Positions 1-17,550 of a stretch of 64,000 nt of DNA are shown in pieces. The notes under the pieces were generated by a model. That model was not told the origin of the DNA. It ran no database searches and was given only the letters and a program-made list of their open reading frames with translations. Source of the stretch: Patescibacteria group bacterium (lineage in GTDB: Bacteria; Patescibacteriota; Microgenomatia; Daviesbacterales; UBA10151); NCBI GenBank assembly GCA_023379125.1, contig JAMCSY010000004.1, forward strand, positions 122,588 through 186,587. The letters run 5' to 3'. The position numbers and the translations under genes were made by a program. The first letter of the stretch is position 1. Each line of letters starts with the position of its first letter.

Positions 1-1378
1 CGCCGGTTTTAGTATACTACTAGGTCAAAATTGTGTTGGTTATGAGATTAATCCTGACAATACCGTAACACCAAAGCTCTTCTCACAACTACCTAGCGGA
101 GGTGCGCTAGGTGGAGTCAACTCAGCTATGGTAGCCATGTATACCAATCCAGCTGCTTCAACGGGCTATTACTTAGCCTACGTAGGTAATAATCTTGGTT
201 TGGTCAAACCAGCTTATGCAGCAAATGCTAGTGGTATCCCTGGGCAAGGCAGCGATGTTTTATTCCCAGTGCTAAAGCTCTGGGTTTTATCACGAAATAT
301 TGCTTATGCAGCTTTCATCTTAATCTTTGTAATAGTTGGTTTTATGATTATGTTTAGACAAAAAATCAATCCCCAAACAGTTATCACTGCACAACAGGCC
401 CTACCAGGACTAGCGATTGGTTTAGTTTTAGTTACTTTTAGCTACCTAATTGCTTCTGTCTTAGTAGATTTGTCTTTTGTGGTCATGCAAGTCATTGCAG
501 CACTCTTTGACGCTGCTTCAGTAGGAATTACCAATGCTAGTGATCTGGCTCAGAATGGTAACGCGATTGCTATTTTTTGGTCATTTCTATGGTCTGGTGT
601 ACTTGGTAATATATTCACTGGTTTTGCCCAATTATTAACACCCTCACCCCAAGCAGCCCAATTCATTGGCAGCAACGCACTGGGATTTGGGCTTGGACCA
701 GTATTAAACACATTGCTACCAAACTTCACAGAATGGATTGGTACTGTAATTTCTCAAGGAACTGGTTATGTGATTGGTGGCATAGTCACAGTTATAGTAA
801 TAATCGCATTTCTAATACAGATGTTAAGACTTATTTGGGGATTAATTTCCGCCTATATTACTATTCTCGTAATGACTATTCTAGGTCCTGTTATAATTAT
901 GTTTTCTTCAATCCCTGGTAGAAGTGGTGTAATTTCTTTCTGGTGGAAAACAATCTTAGCTAATGTAATGATCTTTCCAGCAGTTTTTGCTGCCTTCCTT
1001 TTTGCTTCATCTATTGTTAGTCAGACGACTACTATCACCACAGCTTTACCGCTCATGGGTGGTTTACCTGCTGTTGGCTCAGTTGACCTACTTAAAGCTG
1101 TTTTAGGATTAGGTATTATGATGGGAACTCCTGCTATTCCTAACATGGTCAAGCAAGCCTTTGGGATTAAAGATGTTCAAGGATTGCCACAAGCAGCAGT
1201 TGCAGGATTCATGGGAGGAATTGCTGCTGGTAGAACAGGTTACGGAGGAATGATGCGTTCAACAGGCTTAGCTGAAGCTCAGGAAGGACTTTCCCGGCAA
1301 AGAATGAGCGATATAGGGACATCATTATCCGGATCTAGAAGAGAAACCATTCTACGCTGGCTGCCCAGGTCCCGCTAA
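1..1378 (+). CDS. Polytopic membrane protein, VirB6/TrbL-like (PrgH/TcpH-type) candidate. It is 5'-partial because the reading frame is open to the window start.
   Basis: Frame 2 has no stop from nt 2 to the listed ATG at 128. There are at least 6 hydrophobic Gly/Ala-rich TM segments and a hydrophilic C-terminal tail. It lies 3 kb upstream of a VirB4 operon. Assignment rests on topology and context only. Confidence 0.4.
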   Translation, partial: AGFSILLGQNCVGYEINPDNTVTPKLFSQLPSGGALGGVNSAMVAMYTNPAASTGYYLAYVGNNLGLVKPAYAANASGIPGQGSDVLFPVLKLWVLSRNIAYAAFILIFVIVGFMIMFRQKINPQTVITAQQALPGLAIGLVLVTFSYLIASVLVDLSFVVMQVIAALFDAASVGITNASDLAQNGNAIAIFWSFLWSGVLGNIFTGFAQLLTPSPQAAQFIGSNALGFGLGPVLNTLLPNFTEWIGTVISQGTGYVIGGIVTVIVIIAFLIQMLRLIWGLISAYITILVMTILGPVIIMFSSIPGRSGVISFWWKTILANVMIFPAVFAAFLFASSIVSQTTTITTALPLMGGLPAVGSVDLLKAVLGLGIMMGTPAIPNMVKQAFGIKDVQGLPQAAVAGFMGGIAAGRTGYGGMMRSTGLAEAQEGLSRQRMSDIGTSLSGSRRETILRWLPRSR

Positions 1379-1441
1379 GTAAAAAATCAGAGAAGTCTTC
1401 TTTAGGATTTAATGCAGTCAGATAAATCTTAGTTGCTTGCC

Positions 1442-3163
1442 TTATTTTAACTTAAGACTTTCTTGCATAATACCTTTAATGAGATTAAGAATAAACGAGA
1501 TAGCTCCTCCGATTGTGCGCCTAGTGTTTATATAAAAATCTGGGCTGATTGATCCTGGAAATCCCAGAACTTTCTTTAGTACATTTTCACGATCACTCGG
1601 GTTGATAAAGGGAGCTCTTTTTTCATCGGATAAGCCTGTTAAGTTGTTAGCCATCGCTACAATTTCCGTAAAACCATACAGACGCTTACCTGTTTCCGTT
1701 TTTCTAGCTGACTTAGCATATTCAATAAAATTAACAAATAACTGTCTTTTTGTTTCCCACTGTTTTTCACTTAAGTAAGAAAAGGTATCTATCAAAGCAT
1801 ATAAGGAATCTGGAGTTGGGTTTCTTAAAAAAGCATCACTTTTACCATACATCGCATCCCTGGCAGCATCAGGTTGAGCCAGTTTTCTGTAGGCCCAAAG
1901 TCCTGCCGGAGGCTCATTACCGATATTAGCAAAATTTTTATTTGCCCAAAAAGAAGCATCTTTGGGAGCAGTTCCATCATGCAAAAACTCTAATTCAGTA
2001 CTACCATTATCTAAAGTTCTTAGTTTGATGAGACCATCTGGATGATCTTTTTTATCATATCCAAACTCGCTGGATCCTGCCAGATCTGTAAGCCAATCTA
2101 CTGCCCCAAGATTAATACCTTTCATTAACCTAATTATAGGCCTGTTAGACTCTGCTTGGGTCAATAAGAAATCGTTAAATTTCAGAATCCTCCTCATCGT
2201 CCAATCTCCTCCACTCATATCACCTGTAAACTCATATTTATTCTTTTTCTCGTTATAGACTGCTTTATCATGAGATGACATTCTTCCACTGAGACGCCAA
2301 AACCGTTCTGCTAGGTTTTGTATCCATGCGTAATCAGTAGCATGATCACTAGCCCAAGCTTTTCTATCTTCTTTTTCATGATGTCCACCGAAAGCATCAG
2401 CTAATTCGTACTGTATCCTTGCTCGGACGGCATTTTTTGCGGTCCCCCCAGTTTGAATGTATTCTTCGGCGTGTTGCTCATAAAGGTTTAGGGCCTTAAT
2501 AAAACCTGGTAATTGGAAAAGAGTATCCAAATATTCTGAATTAAGCCTGCCAAAGGCTGTTTGGATAGTTTTTACATCAAGCGCAGTCTCGTATTCTAAA
2601 AACGATTGGTGAAAAGTAAAACGTGCAATATATTCTTCGTATAATTTTCTTCCTATATCGCGATTTGGGTCTTCCTTATCAGAATGTTTGGCAATATAAT
2701 CTGGGCTATATAACCCAGAGATCATTAGGCCAATTCTTTCAAACTCTTGTTGTAAACCAGGACCTCCACCAGCAGTTCTAGTTTGCTCCACTTTTGCCAA
2801 CACACTCCGAAGCATATTTATTTTATCTTGCGCCTCAGCTGGAACCATAATTACTCGTGGTCCAAGTTGTGTTTCAACCACCAGTCTTTCCATTCCCGGT
2901 GGCATTGTCCCCTCATCTCCTCTTCTTGGAGGCTCACCAACTGCCGAACTTGTTTCTCCACCAGCTTTAATCTTTTCTCCACGGGCTATCCTTGCCAATT
3001 CATCAGAAATCCTTGCAATCGTTTCTGCTTCATCGACACGAATGCGATGTGTTTTTTCTGGATAATGGTGTACTCTACCATGAGTCTCAATCACTCTAGC
3101 ACGAGCTGTTGGTGTGGGTATTTCTGGACGTGAACTTCCTTCTGGCATGAATTCTGCACTCAT
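1442..3163 (-). CDS. Hypothetical 573-aa protein with no recognisable family. It is Trp/Arg/Asp-rich, soluble and embedded in the T4SS-like locus.
   Basis: Long uninterrupted ORF. It is convergent with the VirB6-like gene. Its amino-acid composition is atypical compared with neighbouring proteins. Confidence 0.5.
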   Translation of the reverse strand: MSAEFMPEGSSRPEIPTPTARARVIETHGRVHHYPEKTHRIRVDEAETIARISDELARIARGEKIKAGGETSSAVGEPPRRGDEGTMPPGMERLVVETQLGPRVIMVPAEAQDKINMLRSVLAKVEQTRTAGGGPGLQQEFERIGLMISGLYSPDYIAKHSDKEDPNRDIGRKLYEEYIARFTFHQSFLEYETALDVKTIQTAFGRLNSEYLDTLFQLPGFIKALNLYEQHAEEYIQTGGTAKNAVRARIQYELADAFGGHHEKEDRKAWASDHATDYAWIQNLAERFWRLSGRMSSHDKAVYNEKKNKYEFTGDMSGGDWTMRRILKFNDFLLTQAESNRPIIRLMKGINLGAVDWLTDLAGSSEFGYDKKDHPDGLIKLRTLDNGSTELEFLHDGTAPKDASFWANKNFANIGNEPPAGLWAYRKLAQPDAARDAMYGKSDAFLRNPTPDSLYALIDTFSYLSEKQWETKRQLFVNFIEYAKSARKTETGKRLYGFTEIVAMANNLTGLSDEKRAPFINPSDRENVLKKVLGFPGSISPDFYINTRRTIGGAISFILNLIKGIMQESLKLK

Positions 3164-3263
3164 AAGTTCCCTTTCTTTAATTCAAATAACCGAGTATTGT
3201 ACCACTATAGGAAACTTATTGCAACTCTTAGTGTAGCTTGCTACAAGCTTGTCTGTCAAACTT

Positions 3264-4127
3264 TTAGTCACACTTTTGGAAATCCTCTTTTCTAGCCCCA
3301 CAATGTGGACAGATAGTAACTCCTTTTCCTTTAGGAATAGGTTTACCACAAAGCTTATTAGGGCAATTAAAGTATTGTTTTGAGTGCTCACTCATATAAG
3401 CAAAGGCTGTCCAATTAACCGGGCAACTGGGAGCATTCTCACCCACAGCACCTATCATCGCTAAATGATCGATAAGTAATTCTGTATCCACCTTGCCATA
3501 CATAGTTACTAACTGATCATAATAATCCTGAATTTGTCCCAAAGCTTCTTCTTTAACTTTAATATCCTTACTACTCCTGATCACTGACAAGTCCAAATTA
3601 TCAACTAGTTCCTCAAGTAAATATGTCCAATTTAAGCCTTGGGTTTTTAGTACCAATGGTGTTGCTCTAACTTGATCTAGAGATGATAAAAAGGGTCGAT
3701 CTTCACTAAATTGGGCCAAATCTCGAGCAAACTGCAAACTGTCTTGTTCATCAAGATCAAGCATAATTGCTCGATTATAGAGATACTTAATCCCTGATTG
3801 TTGGTCTAAATTACTAACTATTATTTTGGAAGCTGGGTAAATTCCTGCAGCTGGTGGACTGACCCAAGCAATAACTCCCTGCTGATGATCACTAACCCAA
3901 TCTTCAATTAAATCAAAGACCTGCCCTTCTAATTGACCAACCAAAGAAGTTCTATCAACCTGTTTTTTAATACCAACCCCTGTTTTTGGAGAAAACAGTT
4001 TCCCCTCGGGTGTTGCCACAAAATAATAAAAATCAGGAATTCTTCTTGTTTCAAAGACGTATGAGGAAGCTTCCCAGGCTGCTTGTGTTAGTGAAGGGGT
4101 TTTTTGATCTACTTGAGTTTCTAACAT
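3264..4127 (-). CDS. Hypothetical protein with a C-terminal Cys4 zinc-ribbon (CPNKLCGKP...CPHCG).
   Basis: 287-aa ORF co-oriented with the 1442..3163 gene. A CxxxxC...CxxC cluster sits at the C-terminus. Confidence 0.5.
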   Translation of the reverse strand: MLETQVDQKTPSLTQAAWEASSYVFETRRIPDFYYFVATPEGKLFSPKTGVGIKKQVDRTSLVGQLEGQVFDLIEDWVSDHQQGVIAWVSPPAAGIYPASKIIVSNLDQQSGIKYLYNRAIMLDLDEQDSLQFARDLAQFSEDRPFLSSLDQVRATPLVLKTQGLNWTYLLEELVDNLDLSVIRSSKDIKVKEEALGQIQDYYDQLVTMYGKVDTELLIDHLAMIGAVGENAPSCPVNWTAFAYMSEHSKQYFNCPNKLCGKPIPKGKGVTICPHCGARKEDFQKCD

Positions 4128-4494
4128 ATTGCTCCTGCTACGGGAAAAACCATCCTTGGATGGTGCGGTCGGTCTCCTGGCTTACCTTTTGCAAAAAAAG
4201 GATTACAGTTGCGGCACAGCTTCTGACTTACACAGAATTCCCTTTTGTGCTTTGCTTCAAAAACTGAAGTAGCACACCGCTTAATCCACGCTATCAAAGA
4301 TTAATTCTTGATGTCAAGACTTAAACCATTTGAGCGAGTTAATACCAAAAATACATTGATCAGTTATAAATTGCTGTTGATAAGTTCTCAAATGATCCTT
4401 TTTGAGGCCCTAGACAAGTGTTTTTTCACGCAATAGCATGAAGAATGATTTCCAACCTTTTGACCAAAGAACAAGACCACTCTCTCACCAGAGA

Positions 4495-4527
4495 AGCTTT
4501 GTGTTATCTAAATAATACTGATATAAT
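4495..4527 (+). promoter_or_regulatory. Putative sigma70-type promoter with an extended -10 (TGaTATAAT) for the T4SS-like operon.
   Basis: tgatataat at 4519-4527 with a weak -35-like TTTGTG 17 nt upstream. It is about 70 nt before the ATG at 4599, in a 470-bp divergent intergenic region. Confidence 0.3.
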
Positions 4528-4598
4528 GCTTTGATTTTGCTAACAAATATAAAAATCTAACAAGAAAGGTTAATCAATTTAGGCTATAGTAAAAATAT

Positions 4599-6029
4599 AT
4601 GGAGCCTCATCCAGTACCACAAAACATAACTTCCTTTGAATTTCATTTAGTTGGGGATATGACACTCAAGCAATTTGGCTATCTAGCTACTGGTTTAGGT
4701 ATTGCTTATTTAATTTTTGTCTTACTTTTTAATACAATACCACTTTTAGCAATCACCCTCATTGCTATTTCGGCAGGTTCTGGGTTTGCTTTTGCCTTTC
4801 TGCCTCTTTATGATCGCCCACTATCACACTGGGTCTCAGCTTATTTTCGAGCTATTTATTCTCCCACTAAACGCTATTGGCAAAACCCTTTAAGTCCCAA
4901 CAGCACAGTTTCTGCTGATGATCCAGCTTTTAGAAATAGACTCAAAGACTTTTTAAGTACAATCGTTTCAGCTGAGCCACAGGCACCAACTCCAACCTCT
5001 GCTGAAAACCTAATTATTCAAAATCAACCATCACCAACTCCAGCAAGCCCCAGCACTAATAAGCCTGTAACTCTAGCAGATCAAAACTCAATACCATCTA
5101 ACTCGCAAATAGAGCAACCTCAACCTACGAGCAACTCCTCTCAAGCTTCTTCTATCACAGCTCAAAACAACCAAGAGCCAGTTGTTTCTTTTTCACCTAC
5201 TAACTCCACTCCGAATAACCCAACAGCTGTTAATACTTCCCCATCTCCCCAGCCAATCACCAGCCCCTATTTTGCCTCCACCCAACCCACTCAGCAAACA
5301 ACTTTTAATCAGGTAACCACCACACAGCAGACAATACCTATGATTGGAGTTACTAATCCAGCACCTATAACTCCTCTGCCAGTTGTTCATCCCCCTGCTC
5401 CACCGAGCTCTACTCCCCCATCTCCTCAAGACATGCCCAGGCCAGAAGAGCTAACCGAGCTTGTCAAACTAGCTCAGGAGGCACGTTCTGTACAATCCAA
5501 AGTAGCAGAAACTCAACGGCGGATTAATGAAATCAAAGCTTCAATCTCCACCCAGGGTAGTCAAAGTGCTGATTATACCGAACAGGCTCAGCAAATGTTC
5601 TCTAACCTGCAAAACTTAATCAAAGAAACTGAGGACCTGTCGACTAAAACCTCACAAATTGTTAAAACTAGTCCAAAAGCTAAGGCGCCAAAGGTCGTAG
5701 TTGTTCAACCCACCAAGCGCACACCAACTCAAGTTTTACTAACCTCAACCCCTAATGTGATCAATGGCATCGTAACAGATCCCGAGGGTAACTACTTAGA
5801 TGGCGTCATTGCCATTATCCATAACAAAGATAATTTACCTGTTAGAGCTTTAAAGACTAATAAGTTAGGCCAGTTTGCAGGCGCTACTCCTCTACCTTCC
5901 GGAGTCTATACCTTAACTCTAGAAAAAGACAATTTGGAGTTTGATTCCATTCAAATTACTTTAAACGGTGAGGTTTTGCCACCAATTAATATCTCAGCCA
6001 AGAGAGGAGTGACAGTTTTAAATGATTAA
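4599..6029 (+). CDS. Membrane protein with four parts. They are an N-terminal 2-TM hairpin (VirB3/PrgI-like position and topology), a long P/T/S/Q-rich low-complexity linker, a coiled coil and a C-terminal carboxypeptidase-regulatory-like beta-sandwich domain.
   Basis: Two adjacent hydrophobic helices at residues 25-70. Disordered segment at about 100-270. Coiled-coil heptads at about 275-340. C-terminal motif GIVTDPEGNYLDGVIAII...LPSGVYTLTLEKD is typical of CarboxypepD_reg/Cna-B-like folds. An 8-nt overlap with the next gene suggests an operon. Confidence 0.5.
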   Translation: MEPHPVPQNITSFEFHLVGDMTLKQFGYLATGLGIAYLIFVLLFNTIPLLAITLIAISAGSGFAFAFLPLYDRPLSHWVSAYFRAIYSPTKRYWQNPLSPNSTVSADDPAFRNRLKDFLSTIVSAEPQAPTPTSAENLIIQNQPSPTPASPSTNKPVTLADQNSIPSNSQIEQPQPTSNSSQASSITAQNNQEPVVSFSPTNSTPNNPTAVNTSPSPQPITSPYFASTQPTQQTTFNQVTTTQQTIPMIGVTNPAPITPLPVVHPPAPPSSTPPSPQDMPRPEELTELVKLAQEARSVQSKVAETQRRINEIKASISTQGSQSADYTEQAQQMFSNLQNLIKETEDLSTKTSQIVKTSPKAKAPKVVVVQPTKRTPTQVLLTSTPNVINGIVTDPEGNYLDGVIAIIHNKDNLPVRALKTNKLGQFAGATPLPSGVYTLTLEKDNLEFDSIQITLNGEVLPPINISAKRGVTVLND

Positions 6030-7047
6030 TAGCACTCAAGACCATATCCCTATCGAAGATATCGTTAACAATTTGGTTTTTCTCAAAGATGGTAGTGTTG
6101 CTCTTGTCATTACTACTTCCGCAGTGAACTTTGGTCTACTTTTTGAAACAGAACAAATAGCCATCATAGATGCATTTGCTGGTTTTCTTAATTCTCTATC
6201 CTTTCCTATTCAAGTTACTATTATTTCCCGTCGATTAGATGTTTCCTCGTATCTGGATACCATCGATCGTGCAAGGGCCAGGCAAAAAAATCAAGCTTTG
6301 TTAGCCATGACTGATCATTACCGACAATTTGTGGAAAGTCTAATTAAAGAGAAGAATGTCTTAGAGAAAAAATTTTATGTTACTTTAAATGTTAGCGGTC
6401 CAGAGTTAGGCTTTTTTAAGCGCAGCACCCTCGATCGCTCCCGTAAAGCAATTACTGTACTTAATCCCCGTAAAGACCATGTTCTTCGACAACTCTCGCG
6501 AATCGGCCTTAAAGCTCGACAGTTGTCAACGGAAGAGCTCGTTAAGCTTTATTATGATATTTATAATCCTGAATACAGCGAAAGCGAGATTGCTGTGGCA
6601 GGCTCAGAAGAAGAATCAGCTGAGACTGAACCTACTTCTGAGAACAAACAACCAGGCGCACCAGTTTCACTTTCTGGAATCCTACAATCACTAGTTTCTC
6701 CTCAAAAACAATCAAGCAACCAAGAACTTACTCCTCCCCAGGAAACAGTTGTTCCTAGTCCAGCCACAACAACCCAGGCAAAACCAGAAATATTTACCAC
6801 CCAAAACACAGCTGAGGAAACTCCTCCAACTCAACCCTTGACAGAGCCAATTGCTCCTGCTGAACCTATTACTCCTTCAGTAACCCCACAACCGCAATTA
6901 GCTCAACCTAGTGCCTTACATCCCTTGTTTTTTGATGCCACCCCCCAAACCTCAACTGTGCAACCTACTCAACCTAGCCAAGCCAACCCTAGTAACACTA
7001 ACACACCATTTGTAGTTGAGGAGCTACCAGAAAATGGCCAACAATAA
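6022..7047 (+). CDS. VirB4/TrbE N-terminal domain protein (CagE_TrbE_VirB-like) with a 150-aa P/T/Q-rich disordered tail. It is the N-terminal half of a split VirB4.
   Basis: The motif IPIEDIVNNLVFLKDGSVALVI...EQIAIIDAFAGFLNSLSFPIQVTIISRRLD matches the conserved VirB4 N-terminus (LKDGSL...RR.D). It ends 14 nt after the ATG of the downstream ATPase gene. Confidence 0.6.
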   Translation: MINSTQDHIPIEDIVNNLVFLKDGSVALVITTSAVNFGLLFETEQIAIIDAFAGFLNSLSFPIQVTIISRRLDVSSYLDTIDRARARQKNQALLAMTDHYRQFVESLIKEKNVLEKKFYVTLNVSGPELGFFKRSTLDRSRKAITVLNPRKDHVLRQLSRIGLKARQLSTEELVKLYYDIYNPEYSESEIAVAGSEEESAETEPTSENKQPGAPVSLSGILQSLVSPQKQSSNQELTPPQETVVPSPATTTQAKPEIFTTQNTAEETPPTQPLTEPIAPAEPITPSVTPQPQLAQPSALHPLFFDATPQTSTVQPTQPSQANPSNTNTPFVVEELPENGQQ

Positions 7048-8767
7048 CCAAATCATCAAAATTCAAGATGTCATCGCCCCAAACAGCCTTGAGGTCGATT
7101 TCACTTACGTTCGCATTAATAAATATCTATATCGAACTTTTTTTGTGGCCGGTTACCCCCGTTTTGTTGAGCCAAATTGGTTAGAGCCACTGGTCTCTTT
7201 CGAGCACTCATTGTTAGTTTCTATGTTTATTTATCCCACTGCTTCCTCTGGAACACTCGAGGATCTTAAAAGAAAGATTGCCGAGATGGAGGCTACCATC
7301 CAAACAGATATTGAAAGAGGACGTGTTGTTGATCCATCAGTAGCTGTTGCTTTAGACGATGCTCGCGAACTACAAGAACAACTTGCTAAGGGAGCTGAGA
7401 GATTTTTCCAGTTTGGTTTATATCTTACAGTTCCTTCAATTGATGTCCAAGAACTAGACAATAGCTCTCAAGTCGTGGAATCTACTCTGGGGAGTATTTC
7501 AATCACTGCACATCCCAGTTCTCTGGAAATGGAAGATGGATTCATCACTACCATGCCTTTAGGTAGAGATAATCTCTATCTAACCCATAACATGGATACC
7601 ACTTCACTGGCTACCACTTTTCCCTTTACTTCATCTGAGCTAACTGCTCCTGAGGGAGTAGTATATGGAATCAATGAGCACAATGATTCCCTGATTATCT
7701 TTGACCGTTTCAGTCAAGAAAATGCTAATTCGGTAGTCTTGGCTACTTCTGGTGCTGGAAAATCGTATATGGTTAAACTAGAAACACTTCGGGCTTTAAT
7801 TCTCGGAGCAGAAGTAATCATTATTGACCCCGAAAAAGAATATGAAGAACTGGCTAAGGCAGTTGGTGGTAGCTATATTAACTTTTCCACCTCTTCTCCA
7901 GTTAAACTTAATCCTTTTGATCTACCAGAGGTCAGCGAGGCTGGAGAAAACGAGCTAGGGAGAAAAATCCTTTCCTTAACTGCTTTTTTGAAGCTAGTTT
8001 TAGGTGATTTAACAGCTCAGGAATCAGCTATTTTAGACCGCGCTTTAAATACCACCTACCGCCTGAAAGGAATCACCCAGGATCCCAAAACCCAGACTGA
8101 TCCTAATATTAAACCTCCGCTGATGGAGGATTTATATAAAGTGCTAATTGGCATGGAAGATCAAGTGTCTTCTGAGTTGGCTATTAGACTAGAACGGTTT
8201 ATTAAAGGTTCCTTAACTGGAATTTTCTCTTCTTATTCTAATCTGAAAATTAATAATCAGTTCACTGTCTTTACAGTCAGAGAGCTACCTGATCAACTAA
8301 GACCACTCGCGATGCATCTGATCCTGGATTATATTTGGACCAAAATCAGAGGTGATTTAAAAAAACGATTACTTGTTGTTGATGAAGCTTGGTATATGAT
8401 GCGTTATCCAGATTCTGCTAACTTTTTGGTAGAGATGGTCAAACGGGCGAGAAAATACTATTTAGGCGTAACAACTATTTCCCAAGACGTAGAAGATTTT
8501 ATTGGTCAAGATAGAGGTAAGGAGATTGTTTCTAACTCAGCTATGCAAGTCTTACTAAAACAAGCCCCTGCTTCAATTGAAACCATTGGTAAGGTTTTTA
8601 ATCTGTCTTACGGAGAAAAGAGACTGCTACTTTCAGCTGGAGTTGGTCAAGGGATTTTCTTCGCTGGTAATACTCATGTAGCAATGAGAGTTGTGGCATC
8701 TGAAGAAGAGCACCAACTAATTACTAGTAATCCACAAGAAATCCTCGCCAGAAGAGGTCCTGTTTAG
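7034..8767 (+). CDS. virB4: VirB4-family T4SS ATPase, C-terminal core. This includes the YPRFVEPNWLEPL region and the Walker A and Walker B (DEAW) motifs.
   Basis: Walker A ATSGAGKSY and Walker B LLVVDEAWYMM, the classic VirB4 DEAW. A TISQDVEDF motif is present. GAGGAG SD at 7018-7023 lies 10 nt before the ATG at 7034. The ORF track lists an alternative TTG at 7016. Confidence 0.8.
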   Translation: MANNNQIIKIQDVIAPNSLEVDFTYVRINKYLYRTFFVAGYPRFVEPNWLEPLVSFEHSLLVSMFIYPTASSGTLEDLKRKIAEMEATIQTDIERGRVVDPSVAVALDDARELQEQLAKGAERFFQFGLYLTVPSIDVQELDNSSQVVESTLGSISITAHPSSLEMEDGFITTMPLGRDNLYLTHNMDTTSLATTFPFTSSELTAPEGVVYGINEHNDSLIIFDRFSQENANSVVLATSGAGKSYMVKLETLRALILGAEVIIIDPEKEYEELAKAVGGSYINFSTSSPVKLNPFDLPEVSEAGENELGRKILSLTAFLKLVLGDLTAQESAILDRALNTTYRLKGITQDPKTQTDPNIKPPLMEDLYKVLIGMEDQVSSELAIRLERFIKGSLTGIFSSYSNLKINNQFTVFTVRELPDQLRPLAMHLILDYIWTKIRGDLKKRLLVVDEAWYMMRYPDSANFLVEMVKRARKYYLGVTTISQDVEDFIGQDRGKEIVSNSAMQVLLKQAPASIETIGKVFNLSYGEKRLLLSAGVGQGIFFAGNTHVAMRVVASEEEHQLITSNPQEILARRGPV

Positions 8768-8821
8768 GGTAGCTGGTAACTATTTTAAAATTATGGCAAG
8801 ATGTAAATATAGTGCGCTACC

Positions 8822-10966
8822 ATGGCTGATCAAGATATCAAGCTTTTAAAAGATACTGAGGATTTAATTCGTGCCTACAATACTGATACCTCGTTTCGTC
8901 ATCGTGTTGATGATTTAATTAATTACCCTGGAGCCACTTATAAGAACAGGCCACTGAGACTTTATGTCTTAACAGTGACCCGCTTTGCTCCCCAATATAA
9001 AGAATACGAACGTTCGAGCAAGCAAAATCCACAAAGAATTTCTGATTTGTTTGTAAACTTTTATAGAGATGGTCCTTTTTCTCGCTTTGCCAGAGAAGCT
9101 ACTACTGACAAAATCTATGGCACGAGAGAGAAAGAGGTTTTAAAAAACATCGAGCAAGATACAGCCCATCCTCAAGAGCAATATAGAAGCTACCATCAAT
9201 TCCTCAATGAGCAAGAAAAACAAGATTCCACACCAGATGAATCGGGAACTGTTGCTGCACCCAGTGCCCAACCAGAGCCTCAGCCAACCAAACCTCCAGC
9301 TCCTAACGATACCGAGACTCCAGAAGTCAGTGTGGAAGCTAATCAGGAACCGACAGAGCCTGCACAGACATTCCTTGCAGAAAACACACAATCTCCTGTA
9401 GAGGTTACAACTGCACCATCAGAAATCACAACAGAATCTTCACCGCCGTCTGTTACTGAAGCTACCCCAACTGAGGCAGTGATAGTTGAGCCACTACCCA
9501 CCACTTCAACATCAGCTAAACTTCCCACAACACCCACAATACAAACTCCCAATATTAAAACACCAAATTTCATAAAAAATATTTCTTCAAGAGTACAAAT
9601 TACTATCAAAAAAATCACTGATAAGATCCCAAGTCAGGTAGGAAACCTATTAGCAGAAATTGGTGGAACTATTTTGGGTACTAAAAAACCTGCCACCGCC
9701 ATACCGTCACCCATAGCCTCCAAATTAGGCGAGCAGACAGAACAAACAATTAGTACATTGCAAATTGGAGCCAAAAAAACTGCTAGCAAGCTATTTTCAT
9801 CACAAACCCTCATAAACTTACTAAACGAGGCAAAAAGTTATATTTTAGGTACGAACGCACAACCTAAATCAACCTCACCGACTATTGGACAATCTCCTGC
9901 TGTCAATAAAACTTTCACTGACATCAGGATTTGGACTAAAAAATTCATCACTCGTTATGCCACACCACGAAAAGTCTTTGCCGGAGTAACAGGAACTATC
10001 GGAGCAGCAGTCGGTGGTGGAGCTACTGGAACATGGGAGGGAGCAGTAGTCGGAGCCGGTACCGGCATAGCAATTGGTATGACTGCACCATCAGTACTTA
10101 GAGAAGACAACACTAATTCCATACTAAATACTGGTGGAAGTATCATGGACAAAGGTGCTGGGTTAATAAATCGTGCCTTTACAACTCAGAATAGAGCCAG
10201 AATTCTTCTCCGGACTGGAAAAGCTTTACTTAGCACGCCCCAAGGGCGGATTGCTGTGATTATAGTTACGGTCGTTATTCTTCTGATTATCTGGATGATT
10301 GCTGACTTACCAAGATCTAGCACTCCCTTCACCCCATATCCTTTGAATGAGTCTGGGCCAGAGATCGGCAATGGGACAACCGGACCAGGCGGCGTACCAA
10401 TTACACCCGGCCCTACTCCACCCCCTGGATCAGATTTAAGCAGCGTACTCGCTTGGGCCAGAATGATTAATGATGAATTAGTTTTAGCAGGTAGCAGTTA
10501 TACTGGACTACCCATCGCTATTTCCAATAACGGCTATACTACTGGTGTTTGGGCTTCTGGTTATGTCTGCACTTACCTCGTCATTGATGCCTATAATCTG
10601 GCTGGTTTTACAGGAACTAGTAAAGCTGCTAACGGTGCTGTTGTTAACTTAGAAAGCTTCTGGAAATCTGCTGGTGATCAAGGTTATATCTATGTTGACT
10701 ATCAAGCAAATCATCAAAATCTACAATATGTTAAACCTGGCTATGCTATCTTTGAAGAACAAATACCAGGAGTCTATACTGGTAATGAGCATACGGCCAT
10801 CGTAACTAATGTTTCAATTGATGCTAATGGTAATGGTTCAATTACTACTATTGATGCTAATGGTGGATTTTATAAGGGCTGGACATACACTGTTTCTAAT
10901 TGGAATATAATTAATACATTCACCGGTAAGTATGGTGAAATAATTACTGGTTTTGGAGGACACTAG
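8822..10966 (+). CDS. Membrane-anchored cell-wall hydrolase with a C-terminal CHAP (NlpC/P60-like) domain. It is the functional analogue of PrgK/VirB1. It has an N-terminal cytoplasmic domain of unknown function and a low-complexity linker.
   Basis: Single TM segment (RIAVIIVTVVILLIIWMIADL) followed by a Pro/Gly linker. The C-terminus has WASGYVCTYLV...GNEHTAIVTNV, a Cys...His CHAP-type catalytic pair arrangement. Confidence 0.55.
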   Translation: MADQDIKLLKDTEDLIRAYNTDTSFRHRVDDLINYPGATYKNRPLRLYVLTVTRFAPQYKEYERSSKQNPQRISDLFVNFYRDGPFSRFAREATTDKIYGTREKEVLKNIEQDTAHPQEQYRSYHQFLNEQEKQDSTPDESGTVAAPSAQPEPQPTKPPAPNDTETPEVSVEANQEPTEPAQTFLAENTQSPVEVTTAPSEITTESSPPSVTEATPTEAVIVEPLPTTSTSAKLPTTPTIQTPNIKTPNFIKNISSRVQITIKKITDKIPSQVGNLLAEIGGTILGTKKPATAIPSPIASKLGEQTEQTISTLQIGAKKTASKLFSSQTLINLLNEAKSYILGTNAQPKSTSPTIGQSPAVNKTFTDIRIWTKKFITRYATPRKVFAGVTGTIGAAVGGGATGTWEGAVVGAGTGIAIGMTAPSVLREDNTNSILNTGGSIMDKGAGLINRAFTTQNRARILLRTGKALLSTPQGRIAVIIVTVVILLIIWMIADLPRSSTPFTPYPLNESGPEIGNGTTGPGGVPITPGPTPPPGSDLSSVLAWARMINDELVLAGSSYTGLPIAISNNGYTTGVWASGYVCTYLVIDAYNLAGFTGTSKAANGAVVNLESFWKSAGDQGYIYVDYQANHQNLQYVKPGYAIFEEQIPGVYTGNEHTAIVTNVSIDANGNGSITTIDANGGFYKGWTYTVSNWNIINTFTGKYGEIITGFGGH

Positions 10967-10972
10967 CAGCAA

Positions 10973-11635
10973 ATGAATCGCACAATTGTCAAGTTGGTTG
11001 TCATAATCATAATTTTGGCTATAGCGTTAGTAGGCACAATCCTGTGGTTAAATAGTCACAATCAAATAGCAGCTATCACTCCTACGGATCAATCCACTGA
11101 TGTTAATATACTCTCTCCTATCCAAGTAACTTTTGCCAAACCTTTTGATAGTAATGCTCAAAAGATGGTTACCTTTTGGACATCACCAGATACTAGTGGC
11201 AAAATAACTTGGTCTGATGATGGTAAAACAGTAACCTATACTCCACAACCACCACTTACTAGTAGCCAAAAATATATCGCTAAAGTTACTTATCTTTCTA
11301 ATCAAAATTTTATCTGGAGTTTTTCAACTACTGCTTTTAATCAGCTGACCCCTGAACAACAAACACAAGCTCAACAACAAGCAGATCAAAATGTGGCCAA
11401 CCAAAGAAACGATCTGCTACAAAAATACCCTTGGTTTCTTAAACTGCCAATTCAAAAGCTAAACTACTTTGTCTATTTTGACCCCACCACTGAGGAATTT
11501 ACGGCCAAAATTTATACCAACAATACTCAAGTTTCCAGTGCTGATTTACAAAAACAGGTTCTAATTGAACTACAAACTTTAGGAATTGATACTAATAAAT
11601 ACAAAATTAATTGGGAAATAAACCCTTCATCTTAA
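10973..11635 (+). CDS. N-terminally TM-anchored protein with an Ig-like (SbsA/Big-like) beta domain. Its position corresponds to VirB8/PrgL-type T4SS subunits.
   Basis: Signal-anchor MNRTIVKLVVIIIILAIALVG. The motif ITPTDQSTDVNILSPIQVTFAKPF...TVTYTPQPPL...YIAKVTY fits the P.dg.t.v.....i.v.F...Y.v.v Ig-like pattern. It is tightly packed in the operon. Confidence 0.45.
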   Translation: MNRTIVKLVVIIIILAIALVGTILWLNSHNQIAAITPTDQSTDVNILSPIQVTFAKPFDSNAQKMVTFWTSPDTSGKITWSDDGKTVTYTPQPPLTSSQKYIAKVTYLSNQNFIWSFSTTAFNQLTPEQQTQAQQQADQNVANQRNDLLQKYPWFLKLPIQKLNYFVYFDPTTEEFTAKIYTNNTQVSSADLQKQVLIELQTLGIDTNKYKINWEINPSS

Positions 11636-11644
11636 AGTTAGTTG

Positions 11645-12097
11645 ATGGAAATTTTCAAAAAGAAACTTATTTGGTTAATTTTAGCTTTGGGAGCAGCTTT
11701 GATCGCTCTTTTTAGTCACGGACTTTATACTGCTACACCTGTACAAACCCTACCCTCTCAACAAACACCTACTATTAATTCTGAACCTCAAGTCATAAAG
11801 ACCGATCCAGATCCACTTAATCAGGCCACTATTTTACCCAATCAAACCATCAGTTTAGAATTCAACTACCCTCTGCAAAATAAAGACGAGTTAAAAATTA
11901 AAATTGATCCTAGTACCGAATTTGAAGTAAATTTAAGTTCTGATCGTAAAACGGCACAAATTACCTTTCCTAATCCACTTGATTTGGGTAGGGCCTATTC
12001 TTTAGTCATCGGTCCAGATACAAAATTTGATGGGGCAAAAAATTTAGGTCATGATATCCAATACCAATTTAAAACTATCAACTACCAGGGAGTCTAA
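11645..12097 (+). CDS. Paralog of the 10973 gene. It is TM-anchored with an Ig-like beta domain.
   Basis: Signal-anchor followed by VIKTDPDPLNQATILPNQTISLEFNYPL...AQITFPNPLDLGRAYSLVI, the same motif pattern. The ATG at 11645 lies within the listed 11642 TTG ORF. Its stop is 3 nt from the dnaN stop. Confidence 0.45.
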   Translation: MEIFKKKLIWLILALGAALIALFSHGLYTATPVQTLPSQQTPTINSEPQVIKTDPDPLNQATILPNQTISLEFNYPLQNKDELKIKIDPSTEFEVNLSSDRKTAQITFPNPLDLGRAYSLVIGPDTKFDGAKNLGHDIQYQFKTINYQGV

Positions 12098-12100
12098 TCA

Positions 12101-13201
12101 TTAGCTTAAGTTTACAGGCATAATAATATATTCTAATCCTTCCTCACCCATTGGTTTTATAATTGCTGCAGAAAGATTTCCTGATAACTCCAAGATTACT
12201 TGGGAAGCTGAGGTAGTAGATAAAGCATCTTGTAAAAACTTAGTATTAAAAGCAATTTCAATCTCCTCTCCTTCTGTCTGGGAAGTTACCTCTCTTTGTT
12301 GATGGCCTAATTGTTTAGCCTCAGAATTAAGAGTTAACTTGGAAGCAGAATTAAGTAGCTTGACTATGTTTGTTTCATTTCGAGCAAAGATCGAAGCCAG
12401 TTTAACTGCTTTTAGTAAATCTTCTCTGCCAGTAATAACTCTTGCTTTGCAAGCAGTCGGAATAATTCTCTCCCAAGCCGGAAATTGACCTTCAATCAAA
12501 CGAGAAGAAACCATCGTAGTCCCAAATTTAAAGATAATTTGATTTTGGTTTTCCGAAGTGGAAATCTCTACTAAATCGGCTTCATCTTCATTAATTAGCC
12601 TTAAAACCTCCTCAAAAGTTCTTCTTGGTACCAAAACCCGCAAATTCTCTTCTTCTGCAATGGGAACGATTTTATGAGCCAAGCGGTATCCGTCAGTAGC
12701 CACTAGTTGCAATTTTTTATCCTTAATTTCTGTCAGAATACCAGTTAGAATAGGCCTCCCATCGTCAGCTGCTGAAGCAAAAGCTACTTGAGGCAAAGAA
12801 CTAATTAATATTTGTGGTGAAATTTTTACTGCTGCTTTACCAGATAATGGAATTGTGGGAAATTCCGTAGCAGCAATACCGTTAATTTGGGAGGAAAAAG
12901 AAGGACTGCTAATTTTCAGCTGGTCAGCAGTGCTTTCAAATTCCAACTGCTCTCCTGATAAATTAGCCACAATCTCGACCAGAGTTTTGGCTGGAACAGT
13001 CACTTCCCCTACTTCACTGTTTTCTGCTTTTAATGTTTTAACTACCCCAATCTCTAGATTTGTCGCGGAAAGCTTTAATTTATCTTGATCCGTGGAAATT
13101 AGGATATTACCTAAAACAGGTAGTTGTGCCCTCACTCCTGCTGAACGAGCTACAGATTGTAAACTTGGCCAAAGATCTTGTTGTAAAATTTTAAACCTCA
13201 T
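12101..13201 (-). CDS. dnaN: DNA polymerase III beta sliding clamp.
   Basis: 366 aa. The N-terminus MRFKILQQDL...ATNLEIGV is typical of DnaN. The gene is located downstream of dnaA. Confidence 0.9.
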   Translation of the reverse strand: MRFKILQQDLWPSLQSVARSAGVRAQLPVLGNILISTDQDKLKLSATNLEIGVVKTLKAENSEVGEVTVPAKTLVEIVANLSGEQLEFESTADQLKISSPSFSSQINGIAATEFPTIPLSGKAAVKISPQILISSLPQVAFASAADDGRPILTGILTEIKDKKLQLVATDGYRLAHKIVPIAEEENLRVLVPRRTFEEVLRLINEDEADLVEISTSENQNQIIFKFGTTMVSSRLIEGQFPAWERIIPTACKARVITGREDLLKAVKLASIFARNETNIVKLLNSASKLTLNSEAKQLGHQQREVTSQTEGEEIEIAFNTKFLQDALSTTSASQVILELSGNLSAAIIKPMGEEGLEYIIMPVNLS

Positions 13202-13209
13202 TTGCTGCC

Positions 13210-13668
13210 TTAAGATTCTACCCTTCTTTGAGCAGTGACAAAATGATGAATTTCTTCTTCACTAACTTTAATCAAGCGAAAATTAACTCGGCCATTAGCA
13301 ATTAGGTTTTTAATGTGTTTTTCTTCATCTGTCAAGACTGCTGATTGTCCAGATTTAACTTCAATAAAATCGATTCTGTTGTTATTCTTGATACCAATAA
13401 AGTCAATTGGCCACCCTAAAGGGACAATTCGGTCATAATCATATCTTAGTTCAGCATAGGTCAAAAGTTCAGCCATCTTGCCTTTTTGAGGGTTTATGGA
13501 GCCTTGTATGGTCTGTAAAACTTTAACTGGTAAATCTTGTACACCTTTGTATAGATCAATTAAATCTGTAGGGATTTCTTGTTGTGGTTTGCTATGTAGT
13601 CTACCAATAAGATAAGCAACTATTATGCCTAAAATAATTATTACGATATAGGTAAAATTTATCTCCAT
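13210..13668 (-). CDS. Small membrane-anchored PD-(D/E)xK nuclease-like protein, NERD-like. It sits between dnaA and dnaN.
   Basis: N-terminal TM segment. Motif WPIDFIGIKNNNRIDFIEVKSGQ gives PD ... ExK spacing of about 14 residues. It ends 8 nt before the dnaN start. Confidence 0.4.
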   Translation of the reverse strand: MEINFTYIVIIILGIIVAYLIGRLHSKPQQEIPTDLIDLYKGVQDLPVKVLQTIQGSINPQKGKMAELLTYAELRYDYDRIVPLGWPIDFIGIKNNNRIDFIEVKSGQSAVLTDEEKHIKNLIANGRVNFRLIKVSEEEIHHFVTAQRRVES

Positions 13669-13689
13669 AAATGTTTGTTGATAGTTATC

Positions 13690-13953
13690 CTCAAGTTATC
13701 CACCAACTAGATTGTTAAAACTTTGATATAAATACTCAGTCATAATATTAGTAGTGTCAGTTGATATGTGTATAAAACGTTTAAAATAAGCATATTTAAA
13801 CGGTGGATAACTATAAAAAGTAATTTTTAAGTTGAGAATTTAGTTGCAAGCTAAGAGCTTTGGGCATAAGTTTTCGGATCTTCTTAGTGTGTAAAAAGTA
13901 TAACATAGTTGTGGATATCTTAGTGGATAACTTGCCTGTTATTGTGGATATCT
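13690..13953. promoter_or_regulatory. oriC-type DnaA-box cluster with an AT-rich unwinding stretch in the dnaA-dnaN intergenic region.
   Basis: TTATCCACC at 13696-13704. TGTGGATAA-type boxes at 13802-13810, 13910-13918, 13922-13930 and 13943-13951 (TGTGGATAT, GTGGATAA). AT-rich stretch taaaacgtttaaaataagcatatttaaa at about 13770-13800. Confidence 0.6.
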
Positions 13954-15282
13954 TCATGCTTGTAAAGATTGTTTAATCTCGATTAACATTCGTTGAATTT
14001 CCCGGTCACGATTAACTGATTCACGAATCTTCTCTACCCCATGTAAAACTGTTGTATGATCTCGTCCACCTAAAATATCCCCAATTCGTTCATAAGGCAA
14101 TTTACACTCCTCATATAGTAAATACATTGCTAACTGTCTTGGTAAGACAAGTTCCTTCTTTCTTCTGGGGCCAACTATTTCTGCCATTTTTATATTGAAA
14201 TATTGATTAATCTCGCTAATAACTTTCTTATAATCAATTTTCTGCTCACTAATTCCAGGTTTTCCTAGAATTTTTCTGGCAAAATCTATAGTTAATTCCT
14301 CGCCAGAAAGCTTAGCTGTTTGAATAACTTGTAGTAGTTTGCCTTCTAGCTCACGGGCGTTGGTTGGAAAAACTTCCGCAATTAGGGTCAAGATCTCTTC
14401 AGGAACAATTTCTCCCCTTTCTTCACCCTTAGCTCTTAAGATGGCTACCCTAGTATCAAAATCAGGTTGTTGAATATCAACCATTAAGCCTCCCTGAAAA
14501 CGCGATAATAATCTTGATTCAAGTTTCTGCATCTCTTGGGGTGGACGATCAGAAGTTAAAATAATTTGTGACCCATTGGTATGTAATTCATTGAACGTAT
14601 GGAAAAATTCCTCTTGAGTAGAATCTCGACCAGAAATGAATTGAATATCATCAACTAAGAGCAGATCACACATGCGATACTTACCTCTAAACTCACCGGT
14701 TCGTTTGTTTTGAATACTCTGAATAAAATCATTAGTAAACTTTTCTGAGGAGCAATAAACAATTTTAATTCGGGGGTTTTTTTGAAGCAAAGCATTTCCA
14801 ATACCATGCATGAGATGGGTTTTGCCAACCCCTGTTCCACCGTAGATAAATAAAGGATTATAGCTTAACCCAGGATTTTGAATTACAGCTTGGGCAGCTG
14901 CATAGGCTAGATTATTAGAAAGTCCAACAACAAAGTTTTTCATTGTATGCTTGGTGTTTAAACCATGCTCGTGAGTATTAACAGGTAAATTATTTAATAG
15001 GTCAAGTTCAATTAGGCTATCAGGTGGGTTAATATTTTCCTGAGAAGAATCAATCGTGATTTCAAAGTTGATATTTTGTCCAAAAACTTGGCTAATAGAA
15101 CTTTGTAATAGCTCTTGGTACTTACTACTTAGCTGTTGTTTAATAAAAGCAGAAGGGACACTAATTAATAATTTTTTGGCTGTTTGTTCTTGCAAAAGAC
15201 TTTGGGCAAACCAGGTTCGATAATTAGCAGCTGAGACCTGCTCTTTAATTAGTGTTAGCACTTTGGCCCACTGCTTCTCCAT
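13954..15282 (-). CDS. dnaA: Chromosomal replication initiator DnaA.
   Basis: AAA+ Walker A GGTGVGKTHL and a C-terminal DNA-binding domain. The likely true start MEKQWAKVLTL at 15282 matches the conserved DnaA N-terminus. The ORF track's 15348 start adds 22 non-conserved residues. Confidence 0.9.
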   Translation of the reverse strand: MEKQWAKVLTLIKEQVSAANYRTWFAQSLLQEQTAKKLLISVPSAFIKQQLSSKYQELLQSSISQVFGQNINFEITIDSSQENINPPDSLIELDLLNNLPVNTHEHGLNTKHTMKNFVVGLSNNLAYAAAQAVIQNPGLSYNPLFIYGGTGVGKTHLMHGIGNALLQKNPRIKIVYCSSEKFTNDFIQSIQNKRTGEFRGKYRMCDLLLVDDIQFISGRDSTQEEFFHTFNELHTNGSQIILTSDRPPQEMQKLESRLLSRFQGGLMVDIQQPDFDTRVAILRAKGEERGEIVPEEILTLIAEVFPTNARELEGKLLQVIQTAKLSGEELTIDFARKILGKPGISEQKIDYKKVISEINQYFNIKMAEIVGPRRKKELVLPRQLAMYLLYEECKLPYERIGDILGGRDHTTVLHGVEKIRESVNRDREIQRMLIEIKQSLQA

Positions 15283-15304
15283 GGAAATGATATTAGTGTA
15301 AAAG

Positions 15305-15365
15305 TTATCCACATGACAAGATACAGTAAGTGTTTCGTAATAGATCATCCCCTACCTTGGGATAA
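15305..15365. promoter_or_regulatory. DnaA boxes in the dnaA upstream region. This is an autoregulatory element and the second oriC element.
   Basis: Perfect TTATCCACA at 15305-15313. TTGGGATAA (reverse complement TTATCCCAA) at 15357-15365. Confidence 0.45.
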
Positions 15366-15429
15366 AAAGATTGCAATCTTAACCCAAACTTAGTAAACTA
15401 TTTTCCTGAGAAGTTGAGATGTTTTAATT

Positions 15430-15567
15430 ATGAATATCGGTACATACCAACCAAGCAAAATAAAAAGAAAAAGAAAGCACGGATTTCGTGCCCGACAACA
15501 AACTCATGATGGCCAAAAAGTATTGAAACGAAGAATGGCCAAAGGTCGCAAAAGACTAAGTTTGTAA
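15430..15567 (+). CDS. rpmH: 50S ribosomal protein L34.
   Basis: 45-aa [48 protein letters not shown] not in the ORF track. It is the canonical L34 sequence. Its TAA overlaps the rnpA ATG (TAATG). Confidence 0.88.
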
Positions 15568-15908
15568 TGTTGTCAAAAGATAAACGCCTCAATATTAGTA
15601 GAAGTTTCCAATGGGTTATCAACGGACAAAAGATTGAAGATCAACTACTTAGTCTTTATTTTCGCTTGGGAGATAATGATCAACCAAAAGTAGGAGTGGC
15701 GATCTCCGCTAAAAAAATCAAAACGGCAGTGGCCAGAAATAAAACGAAAAGATTAATTATGCAAAGTTTGTCTGGGCTGTACACTAAATTGTTAAAAAAT
15801 ACTAATATTTTAGTAATGCCCAAAATTGATCTTGCCGGAAAAGATCAAAATAATATTCAAAAAAATATTGAACTACTATTACAAAAAGGCAGGCTGACTA
15901 ATGATTAA
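15567..15908 (+). CDS. rnpA: RNase P protein component.
   Basis: 113-aa basic protein directly after rpmH. RnpA-like KRL...R motifs are present. Confidence 0.8.
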   Translation: MLSKDKRLNISRSFQWVINGQKIEDQLLSLYFRLGDNDQPKVGVAISAKKIKTAVARNKTKRLIMQSLSGLYTKLLKNTNILVMPKIDLAGKDQNNIQKNIELLLQKGRLTND

Positions 15909-16104
15909 AAAAATAGTTATGGAACTAATTAAGTTTTACCAAACATTCTTATCTTTCGATCGAGGTCTATTATCAATTATTGCACCAGGTGGAGCTTGTA
16001 AGTACTCCCCCACTTGCTCAGAATATACCAAACAGCAAGTTGAACGCTTGGGAGTGTTACGCGGGATAATCTTAGGAGGAAGAAGGATTTTGTCATGTCG
16101 ATAG
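15901..16104 (+). CDS. yidD: Membrane protein insertion efficiency factor YidD.
   Basis: 67 aa with the CKYSPTCSEY motif. It sits between rnpA and yidC. Confidence 0.8.
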   Translation: MIKKIVMELIKFYQTFLSFDRGLLSIIAPGGACKYSPTCSEYTKQQVERLGVLRGIILGGRRILSCR

Positions 16105-16952: not shown

Positions 16953-17025
16953 TTCAAAGTTATAATAAATAATTTGACACTAAGAACTAATTAAACAACT
17001 ATATAAACTGCCCAATAGATAAATT

Positions 17026-17550
17026 ATGGAAGCTCGAGTATCAGAAATATTAGAAAATATTTTAAGCTTGCTAGGCCTGGAAGGTAGTTTTGAGGTGGTT
17101 GAAGGTCCAGAAGAAGTAGCTGTTTCAATAGAAACAGAAGATCCAGGCAGGTTAATTGGTTTTCGTGGTGAAACTTTAGATGCACTACAGCTAATTGTCA
17201 ACCAAATCCTCGGCAAGCAGCTTTCTTCTCAAGAAGACTCTAAAGAGCAATTTAAAAGAGTGGTAATTGATGTAGCTGATTGGCGGAAAAATAAGGAGGG
17301 AGATTTAGAAAGAAGGGCCAGATCCTGGGCTCAAGAGGTACAGGAAAAAGGCTCACCAATTGAACTTGATCCCATGCCTTCTTGGCAAAGACGCATTATT
17401 CATATGATTATTAGTGAGATAGGTGGAGTTTCCTCAGAAAGTGTTGGTGAAGGTAAAGATAGACATTTAATTATTAGTCCCGCAGATGAAAAAGCAGCTG
17501 GGCAACCTGGAGAATCTACAGAAGACATTCCAACCACAACTGAAGACTAA
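17026..17550 (+). CDS. jag: Jag/SpoIIIJ-associated KH-R3H RNA-binding protein.
   Basis: The C-terminal R3H-like region (RRIIHMIISEI) is recognisable. The position after yidC is canonical. Confidence 0.75.
   Translation: MEARVSEILENILSLLGLEGSFEVVEGPEEVAVSIETEDPGRLIGFRGETLDALQLIVNQILGKQLSSQEDSKEQFKRVVIDVADWRKNKEGDLERRARSWAQEVQEKGSPIELDPMPSWQRRIIHMIISEIGGVSSESVGEGKDRHLIISPADEKAAGQPGESTEDIPTTTED

Follow-up and report, generated by a model that had tools for sequence, protein, structure and literature searches.

A relaxase-less type IV secretion gene cluster beside the replication origin of a Daviesbacteria relative

Type IV secretion systems (T4SSs) of the Patescibacteria have been surveyed across 3,035 genomes, which placed their VirB4 proteins in one monophyletic clade inside MPF-FATA (Quinonero-Coronel et al. 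2025, PMC12102498). The same survey reported PrgI/VirB3 proteins, arrays of VirB2-like pilins that are abundant in Microgenomatia and a sporadic VirB1, located T4SS genes near dnaA/dnaN in Paceibacteria and Microgenomatia, and found relaxases to be nearly absent and homologues of the type IV coupling protein (T4CP) to lie usually far from virB4. In Southlakia epibionticum, epibiotic growth was shown by transposon sequencing (Tn-seq) to require the homologous SEML1_0006-0019 cluster, pilins included; no relaxase or coupling protein was found, and the authors suggested that the system exports proteins or has some other function (Wang et al. 2023, PMC10633639). A 2025 review also covers the Patescibacteria T4SS (PMC12857230). 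Here we describe the T4SS locus at the 5' edge of a 64,000-nt stretch of contig JAMCSY010000004.1 (the window), in which only the downstream side of the locus is visible. The locus is a chromosomal, relaxase-less type IV secretion gene cluster of an ultra-small member of the Patescibacteria, a Daviesbacteria relative, and lies beside the replication origin. The system is already described in the literature, and the locus is an ordinary example of it.

Very probably, the locus encodes a pilus-forming, non-conjugative T4SS for host interaction that descended from monoderm MPF-FATA conjugation machinery and is without relaxase and coupling protein. Gene identities, gene order, conservation and chromosomal context are the parts established directly by our analysis. 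An earlier, sequence-only reading of this DNA had proposed a VirB4-centred T4SS of Gram-positive type (PrgI/PrgH/PrgK-like), and this agrees with our results, as VirB4 and PrgI exceed the cut-offs of their hidden Markov models (HMMs) and VirB6 is recognised by fold. The VirB4 protein scored 364.7 bits against NCBIfam CD1110 VirB4 (NF045971; cut-off 325; model positions 177-733) and matched the C-terminal domain of Thermoanaerobacter VirB4 (PDB 4AG5) with an E value of 2e-48. Walker A (GAGKS) and Walker B (DEAW) motifs can be read in its translation, as had been pointed out before. Classification of the ATPase as FtsK/HerA, which had been named beforehand as the refuting outcome, is not borne out, since VirB4 models score far above HerA/DUF87 (35.9 bits); P-loop_TraG reached 87.3 bits (E 1e-24). 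The protein is 100% identical to an NCBI protein of "Patescibacteria group bacterium", and among its 120 best matches all those with a named source are Patescibacteria (Daviesbacteria, Woesebacteria, Microgenomates) at 70-78% identity.

Directly upstream of virB4, the 341-aa protein aligns through residues 3-191 to positions 1-171 of the NCBIfam VirB4 models, matches TrsD (NF041427) below the cut-off (E 2e-6), and carries a precomputed Pfam match to TraC-like PF26593. It had been called the VirB4 N-domain gene; homology to the VirB4 N-terminus stands, but the arrangement is the known TrsD-type split, covering only about the first 175 residues of the N-terminal region. The TrsD-like gene is always directly upstream of virB4 in relatives, and TrsD stands beside VirB4 in 1,664 Patescibacteria cases (PMC12102498).

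The first gene of the operon encodes a protein with a PrgI domain (PF12666; 29.7 bits, gathering score 27), which NCBI names "PrgI family protein". Its predicted make-up (a hairpin of two transmembrane (TM) segments, a linker, a coiled coil and a CarboxypepD_reg domain) was upheld: coiled-coil family matches lie between PrgI and CarboxypepD_reg, and the latter, sub-threshold in this protein (22.7 vs 32.3), is found in 36 of 39 orthologues. PrgI itself is present in all 39, so that such fusions are the norm in the clade and not unusual, as the sequence-only reading had supposed. Among 50 orthologues, 42 keep the coiled coil and 47 the C-terminal domain; the linker is not kept. Because four basic residues come directly after the PrgI hairpin, the extension of coiled coil and beta-sandwich is probably cytoplasmic. 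The fusion could, if cytoplasmic, substitute for a substrate receptor.

The open reading frame (ORF) at the window start had been described as VirB6/TrbL-like, and structure prediction bears this out: the model has a polytopic helical fold like that of solved VirB6, and the gene lies inside the T4SS cluster. No TrbL/VirB6 or PrgH match was found in Pfam or NCBIfam, and the family profile gave no match in PDB; a search of this profile against 1.84 billion representatives covered the best 150 matches, too few for linking the family to TrbL through distant members. VirB6 is scarce by HMM in Microgenomatia, where divergence has been suspected (PMC12102498), and the predicted fold identifies this family as the conserved candidate for the "missing" VirB6 of Microgenomatia.

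The upstream side of the locus was read from a sister contig (GCA_023485375.1) that is 99.7% identical over window positions 3214-18767. Upstream of the window, it carries six genes for VirB2-like T4SS_pilin proteins (PF18895) above the gathering score, then a gene for a Cys-rich secreted protein and then the VirB6-like gene; beyond the pilins lie genes with a SpoIID domain, DUF5657 and NHL. The complete locus spans ~17 kb in this contig and runs from the pilins through the Cys-rich protein and the VirB6-like gene to the opposite-strand riboswitch unit described below, prgI(virB3)-trsD-virB4, the anchored protein, the two Ig-like proteins and dnaN. The pilin array, outside the window here, comprises 5-7 pilin genes in relatives. 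The Cys-rich protein (470 aa; L001 1278-2690, ~1.7-0.3 kb upstream of the window start) has no family match, and only 4 of the 80 related loci have it; it may serve at the pilus tip or as an adhesin, in the manner of VirB5.

Compared with described systems, the locus is most like those of the Patescibacteria clade, with which it shares VirB4 with an adjacent TrsD-like protein and PrgI/VirB3, VirB2-like pilins, VirB6, a gene of putative cell-wall-hydrolase type following virB4, the lack of a relaxase or coupling protein nearby, and a chromosomal position beside dnaA/dnaN. Absent from the published description (PMC12102498) are the coiled coil and CarboxypepD_reg-like domain of PrgI, the two terminal Big_5 proteins, a VirB6 recognisable by fold, and the cobalamin riboswitch unit divergently upstream of prgI. 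With monoderm MPF-FATA systems (pCF10 Prg/Pcf, pIP501 Tra, pGO1 Trs and CD1110 of Clostridioides difficile CTn2), the locus has in common the VirB4 and PrgI families, a TrsD-type protein as in pGO1, an anchored wall hydrolase in the PrgK position (putative here) and no VirB7/9/10 outer-membrane core. In contrast to these systems, it is without relaxase, T4CP, PrgB-type adhesin and a detected PrgL/VirB8-like protein, possesses VirB2-like pilins, which the Gram-positive systems are without, and resides at the chromosomal oriC rather than on a plasmid or an integrative and conjugative element (ICE). Compared with R388 Trw and Agrobacterium VirB (PDB 7O3V/8RT9), the locus is monoderm and has no VirB5, VirB7-VirB11 or VirD4, and identity to TrwI is 8-14%.

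From the solved R388 T4SS and Gram-positive systems we infer a way in which the machine may work, its assembly mechanism and substrate included. A VirB4 hexamer would dock on the membrane via PrgI/VirB3 and TrsD and would supply the power by which VirB2-like pilins are pulled out of the membrane and assembled on the VirB6 platform. The anchored hydrolase-like protein may open the peptidoglycan locally, with the Ig-like proteins lining the passage through the wall, and the resulting pilus or channel would touch the host cell and move proteins or other macromolecules, not conjugative DNA. Several points weigh against a non-conjugative, host-directed T4SS. The system is known here from its genes alone, not from a substrate, pilus or transcripts in this organism, and a VirB8-like (PrgL/TraM, NTF2-like) component was not found among the HMM matches of the locus proteins. 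VirD4-like genes are present elsewhere in most Patescibacteria genomes (PMC12102498), and a distant coupling protein is possible, ~74 kb around the locus having been examined. In addition, membership of the VirB4 clade rests on best matches and not on phylogeny, and the assignment of the 714-aa protein as a hydrolase on a motif and a low-confidence model.

Alternatively, the machine may take up DNA, like Helicobacter ComB or archaeal Ced, and feed a nucleotide-auxotrophic cell. ComB and Ced import DNA with VirB4-type ATPases, VirB6-like channels and pilins, without relaxase or coupling protein, and the components found here (pilins, VirB6, VirB3 and VirB4, with no T4CP or relaxase) fit this set. 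VirB4 also weakly matches the CedB and CedD models; the CedB score, however, is 43.9 bits against a cut-off of 700, and no com genes were found in the window. T4SS genes do co-localise with competence genes in the ABY1 class (PMC12102498), but competence in S. epibionticum needs ComEC and type IV pili, and deletion of comEC ends transformation without ending viability, whereas the T4SS is essential (PMC12857230). On balance, we regard DNA uptake as unlikely.

The chromosomal setting argues for a vertically inherited cluster. Seven DnaA boxes (TTATCCACA, one mismatch) fall within 267 bp at 13685-13951, out of 42 in the whole 64 kb, and the minimum of the cumulative GC skew lies at 14-16 kb; because of this box cluster and this minimum, the assignment of the origin holds, with the operon end ~1.6 kb away. 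The other 52 kb of the window is housekeeping (dnaA, rnpA, yidC, LeuRS, TsaD, GroEL, MetRS, SbcCD, FemAB, MurB, TatD, L25 and a UvrD-like helicase). For comparison we used 80 related loci, out of more than 488 matches obtained when species-representative genomes were scanned for the VirB6-like family; in this GTDB scan, the best VirB6-like match was 42% identical, the species of the window not being in the set. Gene order in these loci is strikingly uniform and runs from a large pilin-domain protein through 5-7 pilins, sometimes the Cys-rich protein, and the VirB6-like gene to a variable insert of 0.9-8 kb, PrgI-TrsD-VirB4, a large bitopic protein, Big_5, convergent dnaN and dnaA. The same order was seen in dozens of Daviesbacteria/Microgenomates genomes, PrgI-TrsD-VirB4 in 50 related loci, and orthologues of the 151-aa Big_5 protein abut or overlap the dnaN stop in L004, L015, L025, L029 and L076. 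Synteny at oriC, proposed earlier as a check, is thus kept across Daviesbacteria species, convergent dnaN included, and together with the housekeeping surroundings it bears out the view that the system is fixed near oriC rather than carried on a mobile element.

An ordinary conjugative T4SS of an ICE, with relaxase, coupling protein and integrase outside the window, would be suggested by the placement of VirB4 in the CD1110 conjugative-transposon family by HMM and by the position of the locus at the window edge, where the upstream side is not visible. The sister contig, however, supplies that side, and in its ~10 kb upstream, including beyond the pilin array, there is no relaxase, coupling protein or integrase. 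VirD4, VirB11 and relaxase are likewise absent among the scanned window ORFs of at least 220 aa, in line with what had been read from the 64 kb before, and none of the three was found within 10 kb on either side in the 80 related loci, where a Walker-A screen of unassigned ORFs of at least 350 aa showed no T4CP-like protein. All that this screen turned up were small putative ATPases of ~380 aa, recognised by an N-terminal P-loop of the "GPRRVGKT" type. Moreover, the locus resembles the remainder of the window in GC content, neither a tRNA nor repeats were seen at its boundaries, a transfer-messenger RNA (tmRNA) gene lies 9-10 kb upstream in several related loci, and the order to dnaN/dnaA is kept across species in which VirB6-like identity is only 30-45%. 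An ICE is therefore a highly improbable origin, and the cluster is a vertically inherited chromosomal one.

Hardly credible is a decaying relic, in which the separately encoded N-terminal region of VirB4, the P/T/S/Q-rich stretches of 100-175 aa in three consecutive proteins and the missing components would be signs of genes turning into pseudogenes as the genome shrank, given that every reading frame is intact, that VirB4 is 70-78% identical across many species with its Walker motifs kept, that relatives and the 1,664 published cases (PMC12102498) likewise keep TrsD and VirB4 as separate genes, and that the S. epibionticum orthologues are essential (PMC10633639).

The features of the locus are collected in Table 1. 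The ORF map reproduced both the coordinates and the spacing of the six tightly packed + strand genes that had been reported at 4599-12097. At the first two junctions the genes overlap by 8 nt and 32 nt, the latter shrinking to 14 nt when VirB4 is read from its annotated ATG, and the later genes are spaced by 54, 6 and 6 nt. The distance of 3 nt between the operon stop at 12097 and the stop of the convergent dnaN at 12101 was also reproduced. Scans for sigma-70 promoters and terminators gave background level only.

Table 1. Features of the T4SS locus and the adjoining origin region, in window coordinates; operon coordinates are those of the ORF map.
Feature	Position	Strand	Remarks
VirB6-like polytopic membrane protein (by predicted fold)	1-1378	+	C-terminal 458 codons of 517-518 aa; N-terminus with signal/TM segment upstream of window
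Soluble 573-aa protein, function not assigned	1442-3163	-	Embedded; convergent with VirB6-like gene
287-aa protein with Cys-rich, zinc-ribbon-like C-terminus	3264-4127	-	Divergent from prgI; directly downstream of cobalamin riboswitch
Cobalamin (B12) riboswitch aptamer	4150-4296	-	RF00174; 5' leader of 287-aa gene
PrgI/VirB3-like 2-TM hairpin, P/T/S/Q-rich linker, coiled coil and CarboxypepD_reg-like beta-sandwich	4599-6029	+	PF12666
TrsD-like protein (341 aa) with disordered P/T/Q-rich tail of ~150 aa	6022-7047	+	Homologous to VirB4 N-terminal region
VirB4 ATPase	7016-8767	+	NF045971; start probably ATG 7034, the 577-aa form as NCBI annotates
714-aa bitopic protein	8822-10966	+	N-terminal cytoplasmic domain, low complexity, TM aa 477-495, extracytoplasmic C-terminus
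TM-anchored Big_5 Ig-like protein, 220 aa	10973-11635	+	Big_5 match; TM aa 8-26
TM-anchored Big_5 Ig-like protein, 151 aa, last operon gene	11642-12097	+	Big_5 match; TM aa 10-28
dnaN	12101-13201	-	TIGR00663, 269.9 bits; all three beta-clamp domains
Membrane-anchored small protein with archaeal Holliday-junction-resolvase-like endonuclease domain	13210-13668	-	PF10107, E 3e-10
DnaA-box cluster, probable oriC	13685-13951	.	Between dnaA and resolvase-like gene beside dnaN
dnaA	13954-15348	-	

Several further observations concern the layout of the cluster. The low-complexity stretches of the PrgI fusion, TrsD and the 714-aa protein lie at 4950-5430, 6620-7040 and 9210-9520; they exceed those of the orthologues in length, and the local GC skew there is -0.24. 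By GC skew, the operon runs toward the origin on the lagging strand and hence head-on to replication, an uncommon arrangement for genes believed to be important or essential; related genomes show the same orientation, their Big_5 gene converging on dnaN. The insert between the VirB6-like gene and prgI (e.g., in L031, L041 and L042) varies in length and often holds the ~380-aa "GPRRVGKT" ATPases, sometimes in several copies, which marks it as a possible hotspot, within the cluster, of accessory or mobile genes.

Downstream of virB4, the 714-aa protein had been described as a TM-anchored CHAP hydrolase. The TM anchor stands and a papain-like fold is plausible, but CHAP is unproven: the protein has no Pfam or NCBIfam match and no PDB sequence match, and its isolated C-terminal domain shows no CHAP (PF05257) or NlpC_P60 match even at E<=10. 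Among 5.8 billion clusters, no more than four homologues of this domain turned up; across the five sequences, a His is invariant, and the start of a predicted helix carries Cys in three and Ser in two. Its AlphaFold2 (AF2) model is poor, with a predicted local distance difference test (pLDDT) score of 54, and the best Foldseek matches of this model are mostly NlpC/P60 proteins (RipA, RipB, RipD and MAP P60) together with a CHAP domain, at E values of 0.2-3. The C-terminus may be a papain-like hydrolase of NlpC/P60/CHAP type. A match to actinohivin in the PDB sequence search consisted of one short motif on three repeats and was rejected as homology. Proteins at the same position in relatives share a ~170-aa N-terminal domain and the TM segment, and their C-termini vary; that of L030 matches the domain of the window, and that of L015 is an Amidase_2 peptidoglycan amidase (E 1e-17). 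In the PrgK/VirB1 role, a wall hydrolase of modular make-up that is anchored in the membrane is plausible.

For the last two genes of the operon, described as two Ig-like TM-anchored paralogs, Big_5 (gathering score 23.6) was found in both the 220-aa protein (35.1 bits) and the 151-aa protein (33.9 bits), each with an N-terminal TM segment; paralogy, however, is undetectable in pairwise comparison (BLASTP E 0.15).

Between the VirB6-like gene and prgI, a cobalamin riboswitch was recognised with 58.9 bits (RF00174; gathering score 31.5, E 4.9e-12) as a full-length match with a canonical B12 box. It shares a strand with the 287-aa gene, which it immediately precedes, is divergent from prgI, and is followed on its 3' side by the hairpin CCAUCC-AA-GGAUGG, then U5 and then AGGAG-N6-AUG. 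Of 29 related loci scanned with Rfam, 20 have a riboswitch that is likewise placed and on the same strand, and a regular-expression search for the B12 box in related loci and the window placed all 26 matches on the minus strand, 25 of them just upstream of prgI. The genes 3' of the riboswitch vary among loci and belong to the 287-aa family, a ~450-aa family or a third family. None of these has a Pfam match, the 287-aa protein giving zinc-finger matches below threshold only (its NCBI name is "zinc ribbon domain-containing protein"), and all three carry a similar Cys-rich module at the C-terminus, in which G/S-C-(A/P)-G-G is followed by CxxC...CPxC and a terminal Cys. Within the 287-aa family, S234-C235-P236, C255 and C260 are invariant, and P274 and C276 are nearly so (at least 90%). 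Orthologues of this protein adjoin prgI in 15 related loci (18 jackhmmer matches, including three same-species copies).

The embedded 573-aa protein, an NCBI "hypothetical protein", has no Pfam, NCBIfam or PDB match, alone or as a profile, and in 11-16 related loci an orthologue stands in the corresponding place. Matches to Csm2 (E 0.003) and BRE1 (E 0.003) in PDB sequence and profile searches of the 573-aa and 287-aa proteins were judged to be chance. Elsewhere in the window, a 605-aa ORF at 44255-46072 (-) has no Pfam or NCBIfam match.

The association of the riboswitch with the T4SS may be functional or may be just a conserved neighbourhood; our literature search found no paper linking cobalamin riboswitches to these lineages. 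That the Daviesbacteria T4SS is functionally coupled to cobalamin status, via a riboswitch-controlled, fast-evolving cytoplasmic protein encoded back-to-back with the prgI-trsD-virB4 promoter region, is a speculative idea to which we give little credence. On this idea, the protein could be a T4SS-linked factor that acquires or handles cobalamin or some other cofactor from the host, or else a regulator or substrate of the machine that responds to B12.

Overall, the locus is a clean Microgenomates example of the Patescibacteria T4SS; it represents no new kind of system and overturns nothing. Few envelope machines have been shown to be essential for the epibiotic life of Patescibacteria, and this T4SS is among them; the fold-level VirB6, the conserved PrgI fusion and the conserved riboswitch unit are three modest additions that offer leads on the role of the machine. 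Were the coupling to cobalamin true, it would suggest that epibiotic bacteria use the T4SS to pirate nutrients or cofactors.

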